The translations under genes and the position numbers were made by a program. A stretch of DNA of 64,000 nucleotides from Escherichia phage vB_EcoM_ASO2A: the sequence record MZ726793.1. The stretch is one strand, 5' to 3'. This document shows positions 3,967-63,169 of the stretch, in pieces; position 1 is the first letter of the stretch; every line of letters begins with the position of its first letter. A model generated the notes under the pieces. The model was not told the DNA's origin and searched no databases. It was given only the letters and a program-made list of their open reading frames with translations.

Positions 3967-3982
3967 TACACGGTAAAAGAAA

Positions 3983-4006
3983 GGGGCGCACTAAGCGCCC
4001 TTTTTT
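3983..4006 (+). terminator. Rho-independent terminator
   Basis: GGGCGC-ACTAA-GCGCCC followed by TTTTTT. Confidence 0.65.
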
Positions 4007-4428: not shown

Positions 4429-4662
4429 ATGATCGAACAAATTAAAAGCACTAAACCAAATGTTAACGGTAATGTTTCTCACTTTATCGGGGATAATGAA
4501 AGAGGTACACCGTACGCCGCCGTAACCGTTCAACCGAACGGGGATTATTGGTTTACCGTGTACGGATCTTACTCTTTTGGACGTTCGGCACATGATAAGA
4601 TCTTGCAAGTGGTTAAGCCTACTGGGAAGAATATCACAGCAGAAAAATTTTATAAAAAATAA
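4429..4662 (+). CDS. hypothetical protein
   Basis: 77-aa ORF; SD AGGAG 7 nt upstream. Confidence 0.55.
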   Translation: MIEQIKSTKPNVNGNVSHFIGDNERGTPYAAVTVQPNGDYWFTVYGSYSFGRSAHDKILQVVKPTGKNITAEKFYKK

Positions 4663-4663
4663 C

Positions 4664-4692
4664 TTGCTTTATAGCTCCTGTTAACTTATAGT
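4664..4692 (+). promoter_or_regulatory. sigma70-like early promoter
   Basis: TTGCTT, 17 nt, TATAGT; TAGGGCGA downstream. Confidence 0.45.
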
Positions 4693-4741
4693 TATTGCGT
4701 AGGGCGAGCAATACAGCAAGCCCACAAAGAGGAAAATAAAA

Positions 4742-5110
4742 ATGAGCAAATCAGCAATTAAAGCACTTGAAAAAGCACAAGAAGTGATCGCAACGTCAAC
4801 CACTGGCGCAAAGGTTAATCTTGTTGGTTATCTGACAGATGAAACTATCCGTAAAAATTGGCGTAATGCTGATTTACTGGCTTGCTTATTGATTAATAGT
4901 GTCGCTAATGCTTTCCAGTGCGAAACAGCCGAGAGCCTGGAGGAAAACTTGTTTGATAATATGGATCAAGCCATTGAAACCTATATACAATCAAACATGG
5001 ATAGCTGGAACAGTAAAACATGGCCCGACAATTTACGCGATACAACTGATCAACTGATCCGCCTTGCCCTGATGGTTGAACGCGATAACGTTCACAACCG
5101 CACAAAGTAA
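4742..5110 (+). CDS. hypothetical protein
   Basis: 122-aa ORF; RBS AAGAGGAAAATAAAA-ATG. Confidence 0.55.
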   Translation: MSKSAIKALEKAQEVIATSTTGAKVNLVGYLTDETIRKNWRNADLLACLLINSVANAFQCETAESLEENLFDNMDQAIETYIQSNMDSWNSKTWPDNLRDTTDQLIRLALMVERDNVHNRTK

Positions 5111-5120
5111 GATTATACAA

Positions 5121-5148
5121 GGGGCGCACTAAGCGCCCTTTCTTTTTG
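5121..5148 (+). terminator. Rho-independent terminator
   Basis: GGGCGC-ACTAA-GCGCCC followed by TTTCTTTTT. Confidence 0.65.
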
Positions 5149-6659
5149 CCTAAATAATGTTGATAGATTCCGCCTATGGAAAACCGACACAGAACAAAAC
5201 TGAATAAATAGCGGTATCGAGCTAATCAACCATTAAACGAATAACCATACCTCCCAGGGTAACAGGCTGTTAGAGAGCCATTTAGAGCGGTTAAAATCGA
5301 TCAACAACCAACAACAAACCATCAAAAACACCCTTTTACCTCCTTTCTAGTGCAATGATAACCATTATCATCTATCCATGTTTATCTATGCAATATAAGT
5401 GCATAACTATAATGTTGATAATAGTTCGCAACAACTAACTAACCAACAACCTAAAACAATAAGCAAACTAATCATAATCAAAGGAATAATAGCAAGATGA
5501 TTGATAACGACAAACAATCAAACTATGATGAATACTAAGCAAGATAACGATAATACGACAAAACAACCAACTAACGAACAATAACAAACGAAACCATTAA
5601 AATAATAACTATTAGCAAAATAGTGCCTGAATGAAATCATTACAAAACGAATCATTCACAGGATCATCATTAGCACGCTATGCCGGACACATAGCGAGCT
5701 AATAATAAGCCAACTACACCCCAACAATCATAACCATCGGTGATGGTTATTTCTTGTTACTGCGTAGCTTGCAATAATTGCAAGCGTAATACGCTTACAC
5801 TTATTGCGCTGGCTTATTATTAGCATTATATGTAATTACCAAGATCATAACATTAGCGCAATAACAATAATCATTGTGGTAATTACAAGATGAAATCATT
5901 AGCAAGATGAATAATTGCACGTAGCAACATGAGCGAATAGCGACAGGTTGCATAGTGTGCACATAGATGTACACGCAGTGTATAAACATACAAGAAAATA
6001 AAGGCTAATCTTTCGGGGGCGAATACTATCGCGTAGCGATATGTTGAGCATCTTCTCTTAAACGTAAATAAAATCAGAAAATTCTTGATTTATTTTAGTT
6101 TTTATGTTAATAAACGTTTAAATAATAATCATTCTCATATAAATAATAGTCTGCTTGTCATGAGCGGGATCAGTTGACAATGTTCCGTCATATGATGAAG
6201 TTGCCAAACCATTGATAAATAAGTGTTTGTGTGATTTATAATCAAGTGGCCCACCTTGTCGCTATGTTGGCATGAGCCTTGCATAAGTCCTTGAATACGA
6301 ATGATAATTATTCTCATTCTCATGATATTTGGGAATTGTCGCTGCGTGGACCTGACGGCCCGAAAATTCGCGTTAAGCACTTCTTACGTATGCGCCATGA
6401 TTTTTGCCATATGATATTGATTCTATTAGATATTCTTGCCATGATTGCCATGAAACAGGGTGTCCCGAAATAATCTCTCCCCGTAGATATTTTGGGTTAC
6501 TTTTTATACAAGAGTGGGGTGTCAAAAATAATCGGTATATATGGGATAATTGATAGGAATCCCCTATGATAATTCGATTGTAATTCCCTGAGATTGATCG
6601 TATGATGTTGGTGATTGATGATTGCCATGAAAGATGGCTAACGATGAGAGGAGATTATC
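5141..6659. repeat. 1.5 kb non-coding A-rich region with short direct repeats
   Basis: No ORF with RBS; top strand A-rich and G-poor; repeated ATTAGCAAGATGA, GATTGCCATGAAA and ATCATTCTCAT motifs. Confidence 0.5.
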
Positions 6660-7034
6660 ATGCAAGAGAGTAAAAATGTTCCGTTGAGTAGTGCAACATT
6701 GCTTCGCTTCTATAAAGCATGGATTGCCAACTATCCTGCAATGAATCGCACAACGAGTGGCTTATGTGGTTGTCTGGTGGATTATGTAGATGATTTTGTT
6801 GGTGAGACAACTAGAGAAGAAGATAGAAAATGGCGGGATAGTTTGTTGGACCGTTTGAAATATGAAATGAGGAAACAATTTACATGTGCAGGGCTGGACT
6901 ACAATCTTCCGTTCAATGCAGATTGCATGGATTACCTTTCAGAGTGTATAAACTTGGCGTGTCATACCAACACGTTACGTCTTCAATGGGTGAAAGACAG
7001 AATTGAAGATGCAAATAATGCTTGCATTGAATAA
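6660..7034 (+). CDS. hypothetical protein, paralog family A (GLC...WVKDR)
   Basis: 124 aa; SD GAGGAG; shares FY..W, GLCxxL, PF and R.xWVKDR motifs with five other ORFs. Confidence 0.6.
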   Translation: MQESKNVPLSSATLLRFYKAWIANYPAMNRTTSGLCGCLVDYVDDFVGETTREEDRKWRDSLLDRLKYEMRKQFTCAGLDYNLPFNADCMDYLSECINLACHTNTLRLQWVKDRIEDANNACIE

Positions 7035-7093
7035 AGATGTTTGTATAATGGTTTGCATACCGCGCATAACAGATAGCCAATGAGGAGATTGAA

Positions 7094-7303
7094 ATGTCAA
7101 ATATGAAAACTGTATCCTTGTATTTAGCTAACACTGATCGTGTGCACACCCTTGCTAACGCAAGTCGTGTACTCGTGCAGTTTCGAAACTTCGCACCGTC
7201 CGTTGTGACAGGTAGTGAAACGTGTGTTATCGATTTCATTAACGAATACTTCCGAGGGAATCCGGTTGGTCGTTATTTCATTAAGGGTCTGAAGGATGCA
7301 TAA
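7094..7303 (+). CDS. hypothetical protein
   Basis: 69-aa ORF; SD GAGGAG. Confidence 0.55.
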   Translation: MSNMKTVSLYLANTDRVHTLANASRVLVQFRNFAPSVVTGSETCVIDFINEYFRGNPVGRYFIKGLKDA

Positions 7304-7304
7304 T

Positions 7305-7526
7305 ATGAAACGCATGAAAATTCGTATTGAGAATGATGGTGGTTATAAAGGATTGGCACATGCAAAATTTCCACTTGTGCTGGAAGCTACGGTGGAATAC
7401 AGTGGGCTTGCTCATGTGCGATTCTCGAAGATGATGGAAGTGCAGGAATGGTTTTGGGACGAGATAGATGCACGAGAAGGAGAAGATTATGTTTTCTTTC
7501 CTCACGAATATGAAATTGTCTATTAA
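7305..7526 (+). CDS. hypothetical protein, paralog family B
   Basis: 73 aa; SD AAGGA; C-terminal EW..W..EG.DYVFF shared with 11243..11464. Confidence 0.55.
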   Translation: MKRMKIRIENDGGYKGLAHAKFPLVLEATVEYSGLAHVRFSKMMEVQEWFWDEIDAREGEDYVFFPHEYEIVY

Positions 7527-61156: not shown

Positions 61157-61231
61157 GGCCCTGTAGCTCAATGGGAGAGCTGTCGGCTCATAACCGATAG
61201 GTAGCTGGATCGAAACCAGCCAGGGCCACCA
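61157..61231 (+). tRNA. tRNA-Met (anticodon CAT)
   Basis: Manual cloverleaf: acceptor GGCCCTG/CAGGGCC, D-stem GCTC/GAGC, loop CTCATAA, T-arm GCTGG/CCAGC, encoded CCA. Confidence 0.8.
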
Positions 61232-61233
61232 AC

Positions 61234-61308
61234 GTCTTTATGGTGTAATGGATAGCACAGGAGTCTTCTAAACTCTTAGTCAAGGTTCGATTCCTTGTAA
61301 AGACACCA
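61234..61308 (+). tRNA. tRNA-Arg (anticodon TCT)
   Basis: Acceptor GTCTTTA/TAAAGAC, loop CTTCTAA, T-arm CAAGG-TTCGATT-CCTTG, CCA. Confidence 0.8.
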
Positions 61309-61503
61309 GAACATTTTAACATGAATTAGCTCAAGTGATTTGAACCCACTACTGATCATGGTGGCAGAGAATGAGGCAAGTATGTCAGACATTATAAACA
61401 AAGGCCACGGTTATATTAGAAGACATAAATGCTCGAAGAGCACCGTTCGTGGAGAACGGGGTTGGTGGAGTCACCATTCATGGTAAAATGTTTTAAAAAA
61501 CTA

Positions 61504-61533
61504 TTGACAACTAACATTATTTTATGTTAGATT
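61504..61533 (+). promoter_or_regulatory. sigma70-like promoter (ACTATTGACAA box) for tRNA transcription
   Basis: TTGACA, 17 nt, TTAGATT; tRNA-Ser begins about 9 nt downstream. Confidence 0.5.
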
Positions 61534-61541
61534 ATAAGTAT

Positions 61542-61632
61542 GGAAGGGCAAATCGACGTGGCGACGAAAACGGTCTTGAAAACCGCCGAGCTTGAAAGAG
61601 CCTTGGGAGTTCGACTCTCCCTCCTTCCGCCA
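61542..61632 (+). tRNA. tRNA-Ser (anticodon TGA), long variable arm
   Basis: Acceptor GGAAGGG/TCCTTCC, loop CTTGAAA, T-arm GGGAG-TTCGACT-CTCCC, CCA; D-arm atypical. Confidence 0.7.
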
Positions 61633-61637
61633 GATTA

Positions 61638-61723
61638 GGTAGATTGGTGAAATGGTAGCCACGACAGTTTGCTAAACTGTAGTCGGAAACGGCGTGTAGG
61701 TTCGAGTCCTACATCTACCGCCA
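61638..61723 (+). tRNA. tRNA-Ser (anticodon GCT), long variable arm
   Basis: Acceptor GGTAGAT/ATCTACC, arm ACAGT-TTGCTAA-ACTGT, 15-nt variable arm, CCA. Confidence 0.8.
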
Positions 61724-61853
61724 AGTTCTTTTTAATATAGCTTACTTTAGCAGAGTAAATCTTCGGCAAGTGGCGGTAACCACTTTACCGATAACTCATA
61801 GTTAGTGGTGTGAACACTGGCTATTTTAAAAAGAATTTAAATATTAGTATTTA

Positions 61854-61941
61854 GGTGAGTTAATTCCGTAGGGGTAGCGGGGCAGACTGTAAATCTGTTA
61901 TCATTGCGATTCGGGTGGTTCGACTCCATCACTCACCACCA
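61854..61941 (+). tRNA. tRNA-Tyr (anticodon GTA), long variable arm
   Basis: Acceptor GGTGAGT/ACTCACC, GCAGA-CTGTAAA-TCTGT as in E. coli tRNA-Tyr, CCA. Confidence 0.8.
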
Positions 61942-61947
61942 AATTAA

Positions 61948-62033
61948 GATGAGTTGGCTGAATGGTTTAAGCGGCGGACTGTTAATCCGTGTTCGAAAGA
62001 ACGATATAGGTTCAAATCCTATACTCATCGCCA
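61948..62033 (+). tRNA. tRNA with anticodon GTT (Asn by position) and an atypical long variable arm
   Basis: Acceptor GATGAGT/ACTCATC, arm GCGGA-CTGTTAA-TCCGT, 15-nt variable arm (GTTC-GAAA-GAAC), CCA. Confidence 0.5.
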
Positions 62034-62040
62034 GAATTAT

Positions 62041-62117
62041 GGACTTGTAGAGTTAAGGTAAACCCCCAGTCGCCAAGAGGCTTCTGGAATTGCAGGTATC
62101 GAATCCTGCCGAGTCCC
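62041..62117 (+). ncRNA. tRNA-like element (degenerate, no canonical anticodon arm)
   Basis: Acceptor-like GGACTTG/CGAGTCC and T-arm-like GCAGG-TATCGAAT-CCTGC (8-nt loop); no 5-7-5 anticodon arm; no CCA. Confidence 0.2.
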
Positions 62118-62123
62118 AGCTTT

Positions 62124-62198
62124 GCTCCTATAGTATAATGGCTATTACAACGGTTTTGTAATCCGTGGATCTCTGTTCGATTCAGAGTGGGAGCACCA
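62124..62198 (+). tRNA. tRNA-Thr (anticodon TGT)
   Basis: Acceptor GCTCCTA/TGGGAGC, loop TTTGTAA, T-arm CTCTG-TTCGATT-CAGAG, CCA. Confidence 0.75.
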
Positions 62199-62473
62199 AC
62201 ACAACATTAAGGGCACTGTGATTGATCGTCGTATCCTGTGCACAAGGTCTGTTCGAAAGACAGTGTTCTTAGTATTGTGTTGATCACACAAAAAGAGTTA
62301 CCTGAAACTTGACCGGAGTAGGGTTGGATGGGGCAAAAGAAGAAGCGGCTCTCCCATCGACAGCAACGAAGAATAATATTTGACTTTGGTTTTGTATTAT
62401 TTTAAGTTAGCTTACCGAACGTAGGGCTAGTCACCCAACGGGATACTCGTCACTGTCCCACTCAATAAAACTA

Positions 62474-62503
62474 TTGACAACCAATAGTAAAATGTAGTAT
62501 AGT
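62474..62503 (+). promoter_or_regulatory. sigma70-like promoter (ACTATTGACAA box) upstream of tRNA-Gly
   Basis: TTGACA, 18 nt, TATAGT; then GTAGGGCG and tRNA-Gly. Confidence 0.5.
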
Positions 62504-62514
62504 AAAGATGTAGG

Positions 62515-62588
62515 GCGTTCTTGGTGTAGCGGTAGCATTCCGTCCTTCCAAGTCGGCGGCACGAGTTCGATCCTCGTAGAACGCTCCA
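62515..62588 (+). tRNA. tRNA-Gly (anticodon TCC)
   Basis: Acceptor GCGTTCT/AGAACGC, loop CTTCCAA (stem has one U-U mismatch), T-arm ACGAG-TTCGATC-CTCGT, CCA. Confidence 0.65.
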
Positions 62589-62686
62589 AATTATTTAATA
62601 AAGGGTTGCCAGAAAACTTTCTCTTTTACTCATGGTTTTCTCCTTCTCTCACACCTCTTCTGGTTGCCCTTCATTAAATGATTTAT

Positions 62687-62762
62687 TGGTTTGTAGTGTA
62701 GTCCGGTAGCACACGACACTTTGACTGTCGTAGGTTTGGTTCAAATCCAGACAGACCAGCCA
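62687..62762 (+). tRNA. tRNA-Gln (anticodon TTG)
   Basis: Starts with U like E. coli tRNA-Gln; acceptor TGGTTTG/CAGACCA, arm CGACA-CTTTGAC-TGTCG, CCA. Confidence 0.75.
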
Positions 62763-62855
62763 TATAACAAAGGTGAGTCACTACCTCAAGTGTGAAGTTA
62801 AAAACGAGGAGCCGCCGAACACTTTCTTTTGCGGTGTACCTTTAGAATGTTATGA

Positions 62856-62932
62856 CGGAATTTAGCTCAGTTTGGTAGAGTGTACGCTTTGGGAGCGTAT
62901 TGTCGCAGGTTCGAATCCTGCAATTCCGACCA
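62856..62932 (+). tRNA. tRNA-Pro (anticodon TGG)
   Basis: Starts with C like E. coli tRNA-Pro; acceptor CGGAATT/AATTCCG, arm TACGC-TTTGGGA-GCGTA, T-arm GCAGG-TTCGAAT-CCTGC, CCA. Confidence 0.8.
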
Positions 62933-62938
62933 ATTAAA

Positions 62939-63012
62939 TGTTTCGTAGTTCAATGGTAGAACCCACGACTGATAATCGTGAGATACAAGTTCGATTCTTG
63001 TCGAAACAACCA
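62939..63012 (+). tRNA. tRNA-Ile (anticodon GAT)
   Basis: Acceptor TGTTTCG/CGAAACA, D-stem GTTC/GAAC, arm CACGA-CTGATAA-TCGTG, CCA. Confidence 0.75.
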
Positions 63013-63014
63013 GT

Positions 63015-63084
63015 TTCCCGTTAGACTTACAGGATAAGAGTTCCACAATTTATTGTGACGCTGGTTCGAATCCAGCACGGGATA
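63015..63084 (+). ncRNA. tRNA-like element with aberrant anticodon arm (possible pseudo-tRNA)
   Basis: Canonical T-arm GCTGG-TTCGAAT-CCAGC and 6-bp acceptor, but the anticodon region folds as CACAA-TTTA-TTGTG; no CCA. Confidence 0.25.
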
Positions 63085-63090
63085 CATAAT

Positions 63091-63169
63091 AGCGGGATAG
63101 AGGAGTCTGGTCGTCCTCGCCAGTTTCATATGCTGGAGATCATTGGTTCAAATCCAATTCCCGCCTCCA
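63091..63169 (+). tRNA. tRNA with anticodon CAT (Met, or Ile2 if modified)
   Basis: Acceptor AGCGGGA/TCCCGCC (1:72 mismatch), 11-nt D-loop, arm CCAGT-TTCATAT-GCTGG, CCA. Confidence 0.7.

Follow-up and report, generated by a model that had tools for sequence, protein, structure and literature searches.

The stretch of DNA analysed, referred to below as the window, comprises 64,000 nucleotides of Escherichia phage vB_EcoM_ASO2A (MZ726793.1) and is assigned to Phapecoctavirus (phAPEC8-like). Positions 5111-6659 of the window are the genome-end (concatemer) junction of this genus and have no real genes. The longest open reading frame (ORF) in the region encodes at most 81 amino acids, and among the stretches of the window without ORFs of at least 85 amino acids the region ranks second, the tRNA cluster being larger. 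The locus carries no annotation in the phAPEC8 record, and a tRNA and tmRNA search of the region gave none. The region does not derive from the host, as a blastn search with words of 11 bases against 5,426 genomes of E. coli detected no similarity. Among 16 genomes the small ORFs show neither an enrichment of variable sites at the third codon position nor consistent preservation, which agrees with an earlier reading of this DNA from its letters alone (the sequence-only reading) that no plausible gene is located here. The same reading treated the 1.5 kb as a single tract, but at least five different elements are present. The features are as follows, the vertical bar marking the cut.

5119..5141, plus strand: intrinsic terminator at the end of the last rightward gene block, with stem AAGGGGCGC/GCGCCCCTT and a T-run after it
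5142..5729, plus strand: G-depleted, A/C-rich subterminal tract; the minus strand is C-depleted and U/G-rich
5351..5369, no strand assigned: Fur-box-like site in the G-poor tract, TGCAATGATAACCATTATC, 15/19 matches
5669..5833, minus strand: structured element of ~165 nt, three-way junction and flanking hairpin, from consensus folds
5676-5696: hairpin H0 of the structured element
5698-5712 with 5810-5824: closing helix P1 of the structured element
5730-5750: hairpin H2 of the structured element
5767-5785: third arm, form 1, a palindrome
5771-5777/5801-5807 with 5780-5787/5791-5798: third arm, covarying alternative
5837..6012, no strand assigned: variable, indel-rich spacer with short degenerate repeats ATTAGCA and TGTRYACA, from the conservation profile
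6013..6046, no strand assigned: left-boundary module, consisting of GGGGGCGAA, a GC hairpin (6027-6041) and ATGTTG
6043..6050, no strand assigned: left end-forming site GTTG|AGCA, cut between 6046 and 6047, where record ends coincide
6047..6375, no strand assigned: direct terminal repeat (DTR) of 329 bp, a single copy in the circularly joined window
6118..6136, no strand assigned: Fur-box-like site 1, inside the DTR, directly 3' of an invariant TCTTGATTT (-35-like)
6297..6321, no strand assigned: Fur-box-like site 2, overlapping copies inside the DTR, within a TTGAAT...TCATGATATTTG block conserved across genera
6372..6379, no strand assigned: right end-forming site GTTA|AGCA, cut between 6375 and 6376, inside the conserved GAAAAT(T)CGCGTTA|AGCAC
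6376..6659, plus strand: early promoter and leader of the first left-end gene (ATG at 6660), from the promoter scan, cross-genus alignment and repeats

The order of gene, terminator, ~1 kb of non-coding DNA, structured element, 200-276 nt and DTR is conserved in Stephanstirmvirinae and Vequintavirinae, and the conservation of this layout across two subfamilies refutes the view that the region is a variable junk spacer. The terminator at 5119..5141 comes from a terminator scan and is annotated as a terminator in both phAPEC8 and Schickermooser; its stem is conserved and its loop variable in 12 genomes. The "non-coding" box of rV5 is the same locus, with rV5 105433-106615 being homologous to the Vequintavirus counterpart, and the rV5 literature has noted it for absent ORFs and a change of skew (PMC3606486).

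The terminal repeat is defined through relatives. Schickermooser has an exact 329-bp prefix identical to its suffix, which maps to 6047-6375 at 96.6% identity. Position 6047 or 6375 is the exact first or last base of twelve linear GenBank records, seven of which have two copies. The records starting or ending at the DTR coordinates include those of WPEC1/2/4/6, Mt1B1_P17, BI-EHEC, KKP 3954, three SA_NWU phages and Ro121lw; two terminal copies are found in WPEC1/2/4/6, Mt1B1_P17, BI-EHEC and KKP 3954, and the window segment is 96-99% identical. The DTR ends of ASO2A are assigned by this 96-99% homology, and judging from these relatives the repeat would be present at both physical ends of the virion DNA; the window holds one copy because its assembly was circularly joined or permuted. 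The ends appear to be unique and sequence-specific rather than permuted, as indicated by the 12 independent linear records and the invariant GTTN|AGCA at both sites. The region as a whole is best explained as probably the meeting point of the two physical ends, right and left, of a phage genome that is linear and terminally redundant. Among the options offered by the sequence-only reading, the one of a packaging signal or genome termini was right, since a 329-bp DTR and both cut sites are located inside the region. Read-start pile-ups, the check proposed there, are the method by which other laboratories have defined these ends. Short terminal redundancies have been published for the same locus in Vequintavirus, Phapecoctavirus and Justusliebigvirus, giving the repeat length only: 328 bp (Korf 2019, PMC6563267), 342 bp in BME3 by PhageTerm (PMC12210895) and 458 bp in Vequintavirus. 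The DTR itself is already known; literature searches on the locus and on transcriptomes returned nothing relevant, and there we found the cut motif, the structured element, the G-less tract and the Fur-like boxes all undescribed. A 26-mer of the DTR, searched as an exact string, had no match in IMG/VR. Few coliphages are isolated as often as those of the rV5, phi92 and phAPEC8 groups, and their use in therapy has been proposed widely; several hundred isolates of these myoviruses have been sequenced, many of them therapy candidates. Many of the GenBank records are arbitrarily permuted or have the gap filled with spurious ORFs, so that base-pair coordinates of the repeat and a candidate nuclease recognition motif would help to orient and annotate these genomes correctly.

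The motif GTTN|AGCA is invariant at both DTR boundaries in 16 genomes and is retained across three genera. The left end-forming site is also present in muut, VEcB and Kp, the VEcB record begins exactly at the motif, and pairs of the motif 343, 344 and 331 bp apart predict the DTRs of muut, Kp 175008 and phiWec188, respectively. When the two boundaries are compared within one genome, their similarity is not significant alone (local alignment P=0.08), so the argument for a cut motif is based on register and cross-genome invariance. The boundary sequences of Vequintavirus EdH4 differ. The GC hairpin of the left-boundary module is kept despite complete sequence replacement (ATCGC-GTA-GCGAT, CCGCC-ACA-GGCGG, ATCGC-TAC-GCGAT and, in Kp, AGCGC-GATCA-GCGCT), and in tuntematon the whole module is tandemly duplicated. 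The spacer at 5837..6012 is a mosaic boundary in divergent relatives. Four of the nine plus-strand copies of ATTAGCA lie within 905 nt, and Vequintavirus has TGTAAAC five times at the position of the spacer.

The junction resembles the concatemer junction of T7 and T3 in several respects: the DTR is short and exact, with 329 bp in the present phage and 160 bp in T7, the ends are unique and specific in sequence, the repeat has non-coding signals beside it, and early promoters are located at the left end. Just interior to the right-end repeat is a sequence able to form a hairpin, and Chung, Nardone and Hinkle reportedly proposed a hairpin intermediate for duplication of the T7 repeat in 1990. 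The differences are substantial: the present phage is a myovirus of ~150 kb without a phage RNA polymerase, there is no sequence similarity, and it has GTTN|AGCA at both boundaries, a 900-nt module with a covarying three-way junction, a G-less tract and Fur-like boxes. To our knowledge, T7 has neither the same cut motif at both boundaries nor a subterminal module nor Fur-like boxes. Packaging of T7 requires both pac and the terminal repeat, and pausing of RNA polymerase at the concatemer junction is coupled to it (PMC13236587, PMC3276506).

By analogy, terminase would recognise the junction in replicative concatemers and nick both GTTN|AGCA sites. The staggered nicks would allow the repeat to be duplicated by T7-type strand-displacement synthesis, placing one repeat at both ends of each virion DNA; the same motif at both boundaries and the hairpin by the left cut support such a nick-and-displace duplication. 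A role in end formation is also probable for the GC hairpin, which precedes the left cut by 6 nt. The first early promoters, reading into the left-end genes, would be in the 284 nt that follow the repeat on its right and in promoter-like blocks within it. In these 284 nt the promoter scan places sigma70-like sites at 6445-6474 and 6578-6606, and the block 6511-6590 is strongly conserved in the cross-genus alignment. Applied to both strands of seven lineages, the scan was too noisy and revealed no sigma70 promoter positionally conserved across genera. The 900 nt to the left of the repeat would constitute a conserved subterminal module of the right genome end, composed of the G-depleted tract and the three-way junction. 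Nothing specific favours an injection-stop signal, another option raised before: a first-step-transfer boundary in a long terminal repeat, as in T5, was not found, the repeat being 329 bp only and the tract lying outside it at the opposite end, the right one. We know of no two-step transfer in these phages.

The base composition of 5142-5729 (A 43.2%, C 21.9%, T 22.3%, G 12.6%) deviates strongly from that of the whole window (30.6/19.9/30.7/18.8). Its A-richness is equalled by 0.04% of equal-sized windows; taken alone, its G content falls within the lowest 1.7%, a level that coding regions on the minus strand also reach. AAC/AAN repeats are abundant, and CAACAA occurs six times. The description of the top strand as A-rich and G-poor is accurate for the left ~40% of the region (5142-5729) and wrong for the right half (6047-6659), which is T-rich. 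Between genera the tract is 69% identical or unalignable in sequence and conserved in composition, G falling to 3.5-4.5% over ~300 nt in Justusliebigvirus and to 6.5% in Klebsiella phage 175008. In divergent phages the A-rich tract is 91% identical without gaps, but a reading of this as "ultra-conservation" was rejected, as the upstream genes of those phages are 92-95% identical; the apparent step in conservation arises from the mosaic boundary at ~5836. The A-rich tract is conserved like the neighbouring genes in divergent Phapecoctavirus-like phages, and poorly between genera. An origin or a long non-coding RNA is possible for this A-rich part. Several other candidates were dropped: ACCTCCTT at 5337-5345 as an anti-Shine-Dalgarno mimic is not conserved, and a Chi-site decoy, restriction-site avoidance, a primase-site-free zone and toxin-antitoxin-like tandem repeats were unsupported.

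The element at 5669-5833 has a conserved secondary structure, supported by compensatory changes beyond the controls, and would represent a new family. Over five lineages there are 12-13 compensated pairs; the count of 13 compares with 7.1±1.1 in shuffles (0 of 500 reach the observed covariation) and at most 4 in slid registers. Its 53 pairs are paired in 98.4% of cells, and in the plus-strand reading only 88.8% are paired. Helix arms 97-130 nt apart covary, for which a protein site in duplex DNA cannot account, and since long-range helices covary, the element acts as a single strand and not as duplex DNA. The minus strand is the more stable by z-score (-8.2 vs -6.2 for the plus strand), folding energy (-76.6 vs -60.1 kcal/mol) and consensus fold (-61 vs -46). 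There are 57 G.U cells on the minus strand and 1 on the plus strand, an asymmetry that could partly stem from the G/T-rich composition of the minus strand. Five Vequintavirus copies share the same fold plan with their sequences replaced, the minus strand always being more stable. The Stephanstirmvirinae covariance model finds one copy per genome and gives rV5-like elements weak scores of 15-18 bits, so that homology between the subfamilies is based on inverted-repeat architecture and position. By these two properties the element is common to rV5-, phi92- and phAPEC8-like phages, with the rV5-like counterpart at the same place. In IMG/VR the invariant hairpin pattern retrieved four contigs, and protein-anchored searches added one Phapecoctavirus-like and two Vequintavirus contigs. 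An Rfam search of 4500-7500 (E<=1) gave two chance-level matches only (E 0.76 and 0.93), far under the gathering scores, and no family, including phi29 pRNA, tRNA-like and 6S. The packaging RNA (pRNA) of phi29 is encoded beside the genome end of a phage with protein-primed ends and no small terminase. The present element, if transcribed, is similar to it in being a ~170-nt structured RNA with a three-way junction near the terminus of a linear phage genome, and different in having no Rfam match; nothing suggests that it binds the portal.

Fur-box-like sites are a further property of the junction. They were defined by the 19-bp E. coli Fur box GATAATGATAATCATTATC, and the recurring motif ATCATTCTCAT belongs to such a site; they are ~20-fold enriched in the region, which has 6 of the 12 window sites at >=14/19. 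Four are positionally conserved, two of them in the DTR. The positional equivalents of 5351..5369 are at 2709/2767 in muut, 2710/2768 in Kp and 2235 in phiWec188; the muut equivalent of site 1 is GCAAATGATAATCATTATC (17/19), and site 2 has 16/19 matches here and 17/19 in phiWec188. Four lineages have DTR matches that are better than chance (P<=0.002 each) and at the same offsets, and in Vequintavirus EdH4 the match is not significant (13/19). The sites resemble the E. coli Fur box in their 14-17/19 matches and in overlapping hexamer arrays over promoter-like -35 and spacer sequences, but they are located in the terminal repeat and subterminal tract of a lytic phage and not at an iron-uptake gene. 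They suggest that the host iron regulator Fur may bind the repeat and the tract, an unexpected possibility for the terminal repeat of a lytic phage; the Fur-like site could instead belong to a phage protein. If bound, Fur would act as a repressor of the end-proximal promoters or as an architectural host factor. In lambda cos, the host protein IHF has a binding site within cosB, the site of terminase. The present junction likewise has a candidate host-protein site in the end-forming region and has repeated putative small-subunit binding elements beside the nicking site; unlike lambda, the candidate factor would be Fur, judged from sequence, and not IHF, and instead of cohesive ends of 12 nt there are direct repeats of a blunt type.

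We infer both the function of the structured element (a packaging or replication signal vs a non-coding RNA) and the strand that is transcribed. The reading we prefer, tentatively but as a serious possibility, is that the element would be a leftward, minus-sense, C-poor and, being C-poor, Rho-resistant non-coding transcript whose synthesis or folding marks the right end for terminase loading and/or primes replication. That an equivalent displaced DNA strand does this instead is rather unlikely. In its fullest form, which is possible but doubtful, the proposal is of an undescribed cis-acting minus-sense RNA, common to rV5-, phi92- and phAPEC8-like myoviruses, whose head would be the bistable three-way junction of ~165 nt and whose tail of ~0.5 kb would be depleted of cytosine and Rho-proof; it would be located 200-276 nt inside the right terminal repeat. 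This RNA would couple host transcription to end processing or prime replication, and with Fur recruited to the terminal repeat, end-proximal transcription or packaging would be iron-responsive. If the element is a cis-acting packaging or replication RNA, it would constitute a new type of end-processing signal for terminase-using tailed phages. The covariation-supported element and the G-less tract are now defined and open to direct testing.

Transcription-primed origins are represented by ColE1 RNA II, T4 oriF and oriG, and the T7 primary origin. The subterminal module would share with them a structured RNA domain at the 5' end and, after it, a potential R-loop region that is AT-rich and GC-skewed, in phages with a T7-like replisome (PMC3606486). 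A somewhat unlikely explanation is that the module is mainly such an R-loop origin, in which a leftward transcript from near the repeat would fold into the three-way junction and then form a persistent RNA-DNA hybrid in the AT-rich, strongly skewed tract, its 3' end priming leading-strand synthesis by a T7-like polymerase and primase-helicase. The tract is AT-rich (68%), and for a leftward transcript the non-template strand has G>C, with a skew, taken from composition, of ~+0.27 here and ~+0.6 in Justusliebigvirus; its composition is kept and its sequence is not, which fits selection on a physical property, and folding favours the minus strand. In rV5-type phages the polymerase is of family A and the primase/helicase is podovirus-like, and the authors of the rV5 paper, seeking an origin, noted the skew change at the same locus (PMC3606486). 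However, neither a promoter, in the promoter scan, nor an RNase H-type processing site has been identified, the module is at the extreme genome end, and the DnaA boxes or iterons of a classical origin are absent. Such an RNA would be rich in U, and hybrids of the rU:dA type are weak. The constant spacing of 200-276 nt to the cut site points at least equally to end processing.

That covariation proves a folded single strand would also suit a free-standing regulatory or anti-host non-coding RNA that is beside the genome end by chance, either a plus-sense, unstructured, A/C-rich RNA ending at H2 and serving as a sponge for Hfq, Rho or S1, or a minus-sense structured sRNA; having no Rfam match, it would be new. 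We regard this as unlikely. H2 followed by TTTCTTGTT scores as a plus-strand intrinsic terminator, but a stop at H2 would leave out the 3' arm of P1, yet P1 covaries. The tract, rich in AAC/AAN repeats and without G, would be unstructured, but a G-poor, untranslated plus-strand RNA with C>G would be an ideal substrate for Rho. A sigma70-like site with 10/12 matches is located on the plus strand at 5501-5529, but this promoter candidate is conserved within the genus only. The fixed subterminal position and spacing in two subfamilies favour a role in cis.

Still less probable is an array of protein-binding sites that acts as duplex DNA only and serves nucleoid proteins, Fur and the small subunit of terminase, the apparent fold arising secondarily from palindromic operators. 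Short repeats and palindromes are numerous, including an invariant perfect palindrome GCTTGCAA-N3-TTGCAAGC, and the Fur-like boxes and the repeat arrays beside the cut site are present as well. However, compensatory changes occur in helices with arms 24-130 nt apart, in three nested helices, and neither strand asymmetry of composition nor G.U pairs would have a meaning for symmetric duplex sites.

Several very small protein genes, such as those annotated on the minus strand of ETEC-TG and PsgM04F, are extremely improbable: automatic annotation gives 7-8 ORFs of 30-80 amino acids, a perfect AAGGAGGT and GTG precede a 32-amino-acid minus-strand ORF (5331..5233) and two minus-strand ORFs are intact in 14/15 genomes, but variable sites are spread evenly over codon positions in every ORF (e.g. 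5/4/5, 8/5/6), the ORF preceded by the Shine-Dalgarno sequence is intact in only 4/15 genomes, the intact ORFs overlap one another in different frames, minus-strand stop codons are few because the composition is A-poor, and between genera the sequence is unalignable while the flanking genes are 91-93% identical.

The statement in the sequence-only reading that short motifs recur is confirmed, one motif recurring exactly and two as one-mismatch copies. ATTAGCAAGATGA at 5898 has a one-mismatch copy at 5488, and ATCATTCTCAT at 6128 has such copies at 6307 and 6313. GATTGCCATGAAA is present in exact copies at 6443 and 6620, both inside the promoter and leader region.

The first and last 329 nt of the linear record of Schickermooser, a phAPEC8-like phage with a published 328-bp terminal repeat (Korf et al. 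2019, PMC6563267), are identical and map to window 6047-6375 with 96.6% identity. The limits of this segment are the precise start or stop of twelve linear records, which come from at least six groups (WPEC1, WPEC2, WPEC4, WPEC6, Mt1B1_P17, BI-EHEC, KKP 3954, three SA_NWU phages, Ro121lw and Schickermooser); in seven of these records each end has a copy. The window therefore shows the two genome ends joined, the direct terminal repeat (DTR) being present once, and this bears out the sequence-only reading insofar as it had offered a packaging signal or genome termini as possible roles for the gene-free region. Short DTRs have already been published for these phages, so that the basic nature of the locus was known before.

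The motif GTTN|AGCA lies at both DTR boundaries in 16/16 aligned genomes, including three phages with a DTR only ~65% identical. In other genera it recurs as a pair, with a spacing of 343 bp in Justusliebigvirus muut, 331 bp in phiWec188 and 344 bp in Klebsiella phage 175008, a 'Sichuanvirus' with a genome similarity of only 31-36% (PMC11726925), and the first base of the VEcB record falls exactly at the motif. For the phi92-like phage BME3, PhageTerm gave 342 bp (PMC12210895). Compared within a single genome, the two boundaries have weak similarity (P=0.08), and the evidence for a cut motif comes from the shared register and the invariance across genomes instead. The DTR boundaries of Vequintavirus lack GTTN|AGCA. 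A GC hairpin stands 6 nt ahead of the left cut, and its pairing survives complete sequence replacement. In tuntematon, the whole left-boundary module (GGGGGCGAA, hairpin, ATGTTGAGCA) is tandemly duplicated (L016 ~2790-2942, corresponding to window 6013-6046) with two different hairpin alleles, and muut has two TTTGTTGAGC copies side by side.

The flagged stretch matches more than 40 genomes of Phapecoctavirus (phAPEC8-like myoviruses of ~150 kb, subfamily Stephanstirmvirinae) over its full length at 91-98% identity. All Phapecoctavirus-like genomes are colinear across the entire gap, which measures 1494-1591 nt in them, and its counterparts span 1.77 kb in muut and 2.0 kb in the Klebsiella phage. 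The region is non-coding, as had been supposed when no plausible gene was seen there, because the variable sites of every small ORF are spread evenly across the three codon positions (16 genomes) and the ORF preceded by a perfect Shine-Dalgarno sequence survives intact in just 4 of 15 genomes. ORFs longer than 81 aa are absent from 5111-6659, which ranks second among the window's stretches without ORFs of at least 85 aa; the largest ORF-free stretch is the tRNA cluster. The phAPEC8 annotation of the homologous 1.5 kb holds a terminator only. In ETEC-TG (L003 984-2499) and PsgM04F (L007 2024-3497), permissive gene callers gave the junction, including the terminal repeat, 7-8 tiny hypothetical proteins (minus-strand ORFs of 30-80 aa), which the codon-position test does not support. 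The perfect Shine-Dalgarno, AAGGAGGT followed by GTG (5330-5349, minus strand), precedes a hydrophobic 32-aa ORF at 5331..5233 whose start codon is missing from the divergent phages; the plus-strand reading of these bases mimics the 16S anti-SD sequence (ACCTCCTT). The features of the window are as follows.

61157-63169, plus strand: 10 tRNA genes (Met, Arg, Ser, Asn, Thr, Gly, Gln, Pro, Ile, Met)
5676-5696: hairpin H0, followed by a three-way junction
5698-5712 with 5810-5824: 15-bp closing helix of the junction, arms 97-130 nt apart
5730-5750: hairpin H2, inside the junction
5767-5785: third arm, form one, an invariant perfect palindrome
5771-5777/5801-5807 and 5780-5787/5791-5798: third arm, form two, a covarying two-part helix
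6445-6474 and 6578-6606: sigma70-like sites in the right part (6376-6659)
6511-6590: block ahead of the first gene, with conservation across all four lineages

The ~900 nt to the left of the DTR form a subterminal module of a G-depleted tract (5142-5729) and a structured element (5669-5833). The tract contains 43.2% A and 12.6% G, and just 0.04% of equal-sized windows are as A-rich; the A-rich, G-poor top strand described from the sequence alone therefore holds here but not in the right half of the region, which is T-rich. G depletion is stronger in relatives: in Justusliebigvirus G drops to 3.5-4.5% over ~300 nt, and the Klebsiella phage has 6.5%. In comparison with muut, the flanking genes are 91-93% identical while the tract is 69% identical or unalignable, so that between genera its composition is conserved and its sequence is not. 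In the divergent phages, 5142-5729 has 91% identity with zero gaps; special constraint on it was considered and dropped, since these phages show 92-95% identity in the genes upstream as well. The conservation step at ~5836 is accordingly a mosaic boundary.

Unlike the diverging tract, the structured element is alignable across five lineages and its helices covary. RNAalifold gave 45 pairs, 12 of them compensated, for the plus strand and 53 pairs, 13 of them compensated, for the minus strand. The fold is real, with 13 double-change pairs observed against 7.1±1.1 in shuffles (0/500) and at most 4 in slid registers. The covariation of long-range nested helices indicates that the element acts as a single strand and not as duplex DNA; the two forms of its third arm are mutually exclusive. 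The minus strand is favoured as the folding strand, with a folding energy of -76.6 vs -60.1 kcal/mol for the plus strand and consensus energies of -61 vs -46. Read on the minus strand, 98.4% of the alignment cells in these helices are paired, 57 of them as G.U, whereas the plus reading gives 88.8% with 1 G.U cell and 65 mismatches. This asymmetry may be partly compositional, the minus strand being G/T-rich. The element has no match in Rfam, and a similarity search against E. coli genomes found no sequence like it.

A counterpart exists in Vequintavirus. Homologs of the gene that precedes the gap in phAPEC8 occur in rV5-like contigs, and there too an ORF-poor gap (1.1-1.6 kb) comes next; this gap is common to 120 Vequintavirus records and, among the matches listed, nearly always unannotated. 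The layout in EdH4 is that of Phapecoctavirus: gene, terminator, ~1 kb of non-coding DNA and an exact 459-bp DTR (458 bp in the EdH4 paper). The rV5 genome paper draws a 'non-coding' box at this locus and notes a skew change, no more (PMC3606486). The gap element follows the same plan, with a GC hairpin and then a perfect long-range helix of 17-18 bp (GACATAATA...). Two contigs have different sequences in the inner half of this helix, and the changes are fully compensated. An H2-like hairpin and a long third arm complete the element. The minus strand is more stable in 5/5 copies, and in five lineages the element lies 200-276 nt from the left repeat boundary. Because the covariance model scores these copies at just 15-18 bits, kinship of the two elements rests on architecture and position. 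Just before the DTR, Vequintaviruses also have 5-6 degenerate TGTAAAC(A)/GCATGTAAAC repeats over 130 nt (EdH4 junction L030/L031, reverse complement 2020-2140; L027 5350-5500), which are candidate small terminase subunit binding sites or iterons.

Three motifs had been said to recur in the region: GATTGCCATGAAA does so exactly, at 6443 and 6620, and the other two with one mismatch each. One of them, ATCATTCTCAT, is part of a motif near the E. coli Fur consensus. Fur-like sites scoring at least 14/19 are enriched, 6 of the window's 12 falling in the flagged region, and two boxes inside the DTR keep their positions in four lineages, as do one or two more within the G-poor tract. Scores reach 17/19 in muut and phiWec188, and the sites exceed dinucleotide shuffles in each of four DTRs (P<=0.002) but not in the Vequintavirus DTR. 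The boxes overlie promoter-like blocks conserved across genera, and a putative binding protein could be a phage protein instead of Fur. We interpret the right part, 6376-6659, as the early promoter and leader region of the left end. An exact repeat of 15 nt, ATGATTGCCATGAAA, covers the -35 of a predicted promoter at 6443-6457 and recurs at 6620-6634, where it stands 25 nt ahead of the start codon of the first gene; the pair, kept in muut and not in phiWec phages, could be operators.

By analogy with T7, staggered nicks at the two GTTN|AGCA sites would be followed by duplication of the repeat through strand displacement, and we infer that nicking at the motifs forms the ends. T7 packaging depends on the pac site together with the repeat, and it is coupled to pausing of the polymerase when this reaches the concatemer junction (PMC13236587, PMC3276506). 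Gene orientation suggests left-end-first entry and right-to-left packaging, and the subterminal module would have a cis role at the right end. We favour as its product a structured RNA that is transcribed leftward and poor in C, or else the corresponding displaced strand of DNA; either would label the right end as the place for terminase to load and/or act as a primer of replication. Being C-poor, the transcript would resist Rho. The main rivals are that the module is purely an R-loop origin or that it encodes a trans-acting non-coding RNA. No promoter was found to be positionally conserved across genera on either strand, and no transcriptome was found in the literature. The searchable literature yielded no account of the Fur-like boxes, the G-less tract, the common cut motif or the covarying element that both subfamilies have. 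The finding is directly testable in widely used phages.

Window 5110-5117 has no copy of phAPEC8_0017, a gene of 420 nt with a homolog in rV5; in most relatives it lies between the last gene and the terminator (compare L001 2570-2989 and L002 1652-2071), and its presence or absence accounts for the 'insertions' in PNJ1809-36 and AV126. The terminator hairpin cassette AAGGGGCGC...GCGCCCCTT has at least three copies among the small rightward genes (1-26, 3981-4006, 5119-5141) and may be a recombination point for mosaic exchange of gene cassettes between relatives. Near-identical Phapecoctavirus, Justusliebigvirus and Vequintavirus genomes have been deposited as 'Campylobacter', 'Pseudomonas' and 'Acinetobacter' phages, labels that probably reflect host mislabelling or contaminating coliphages.
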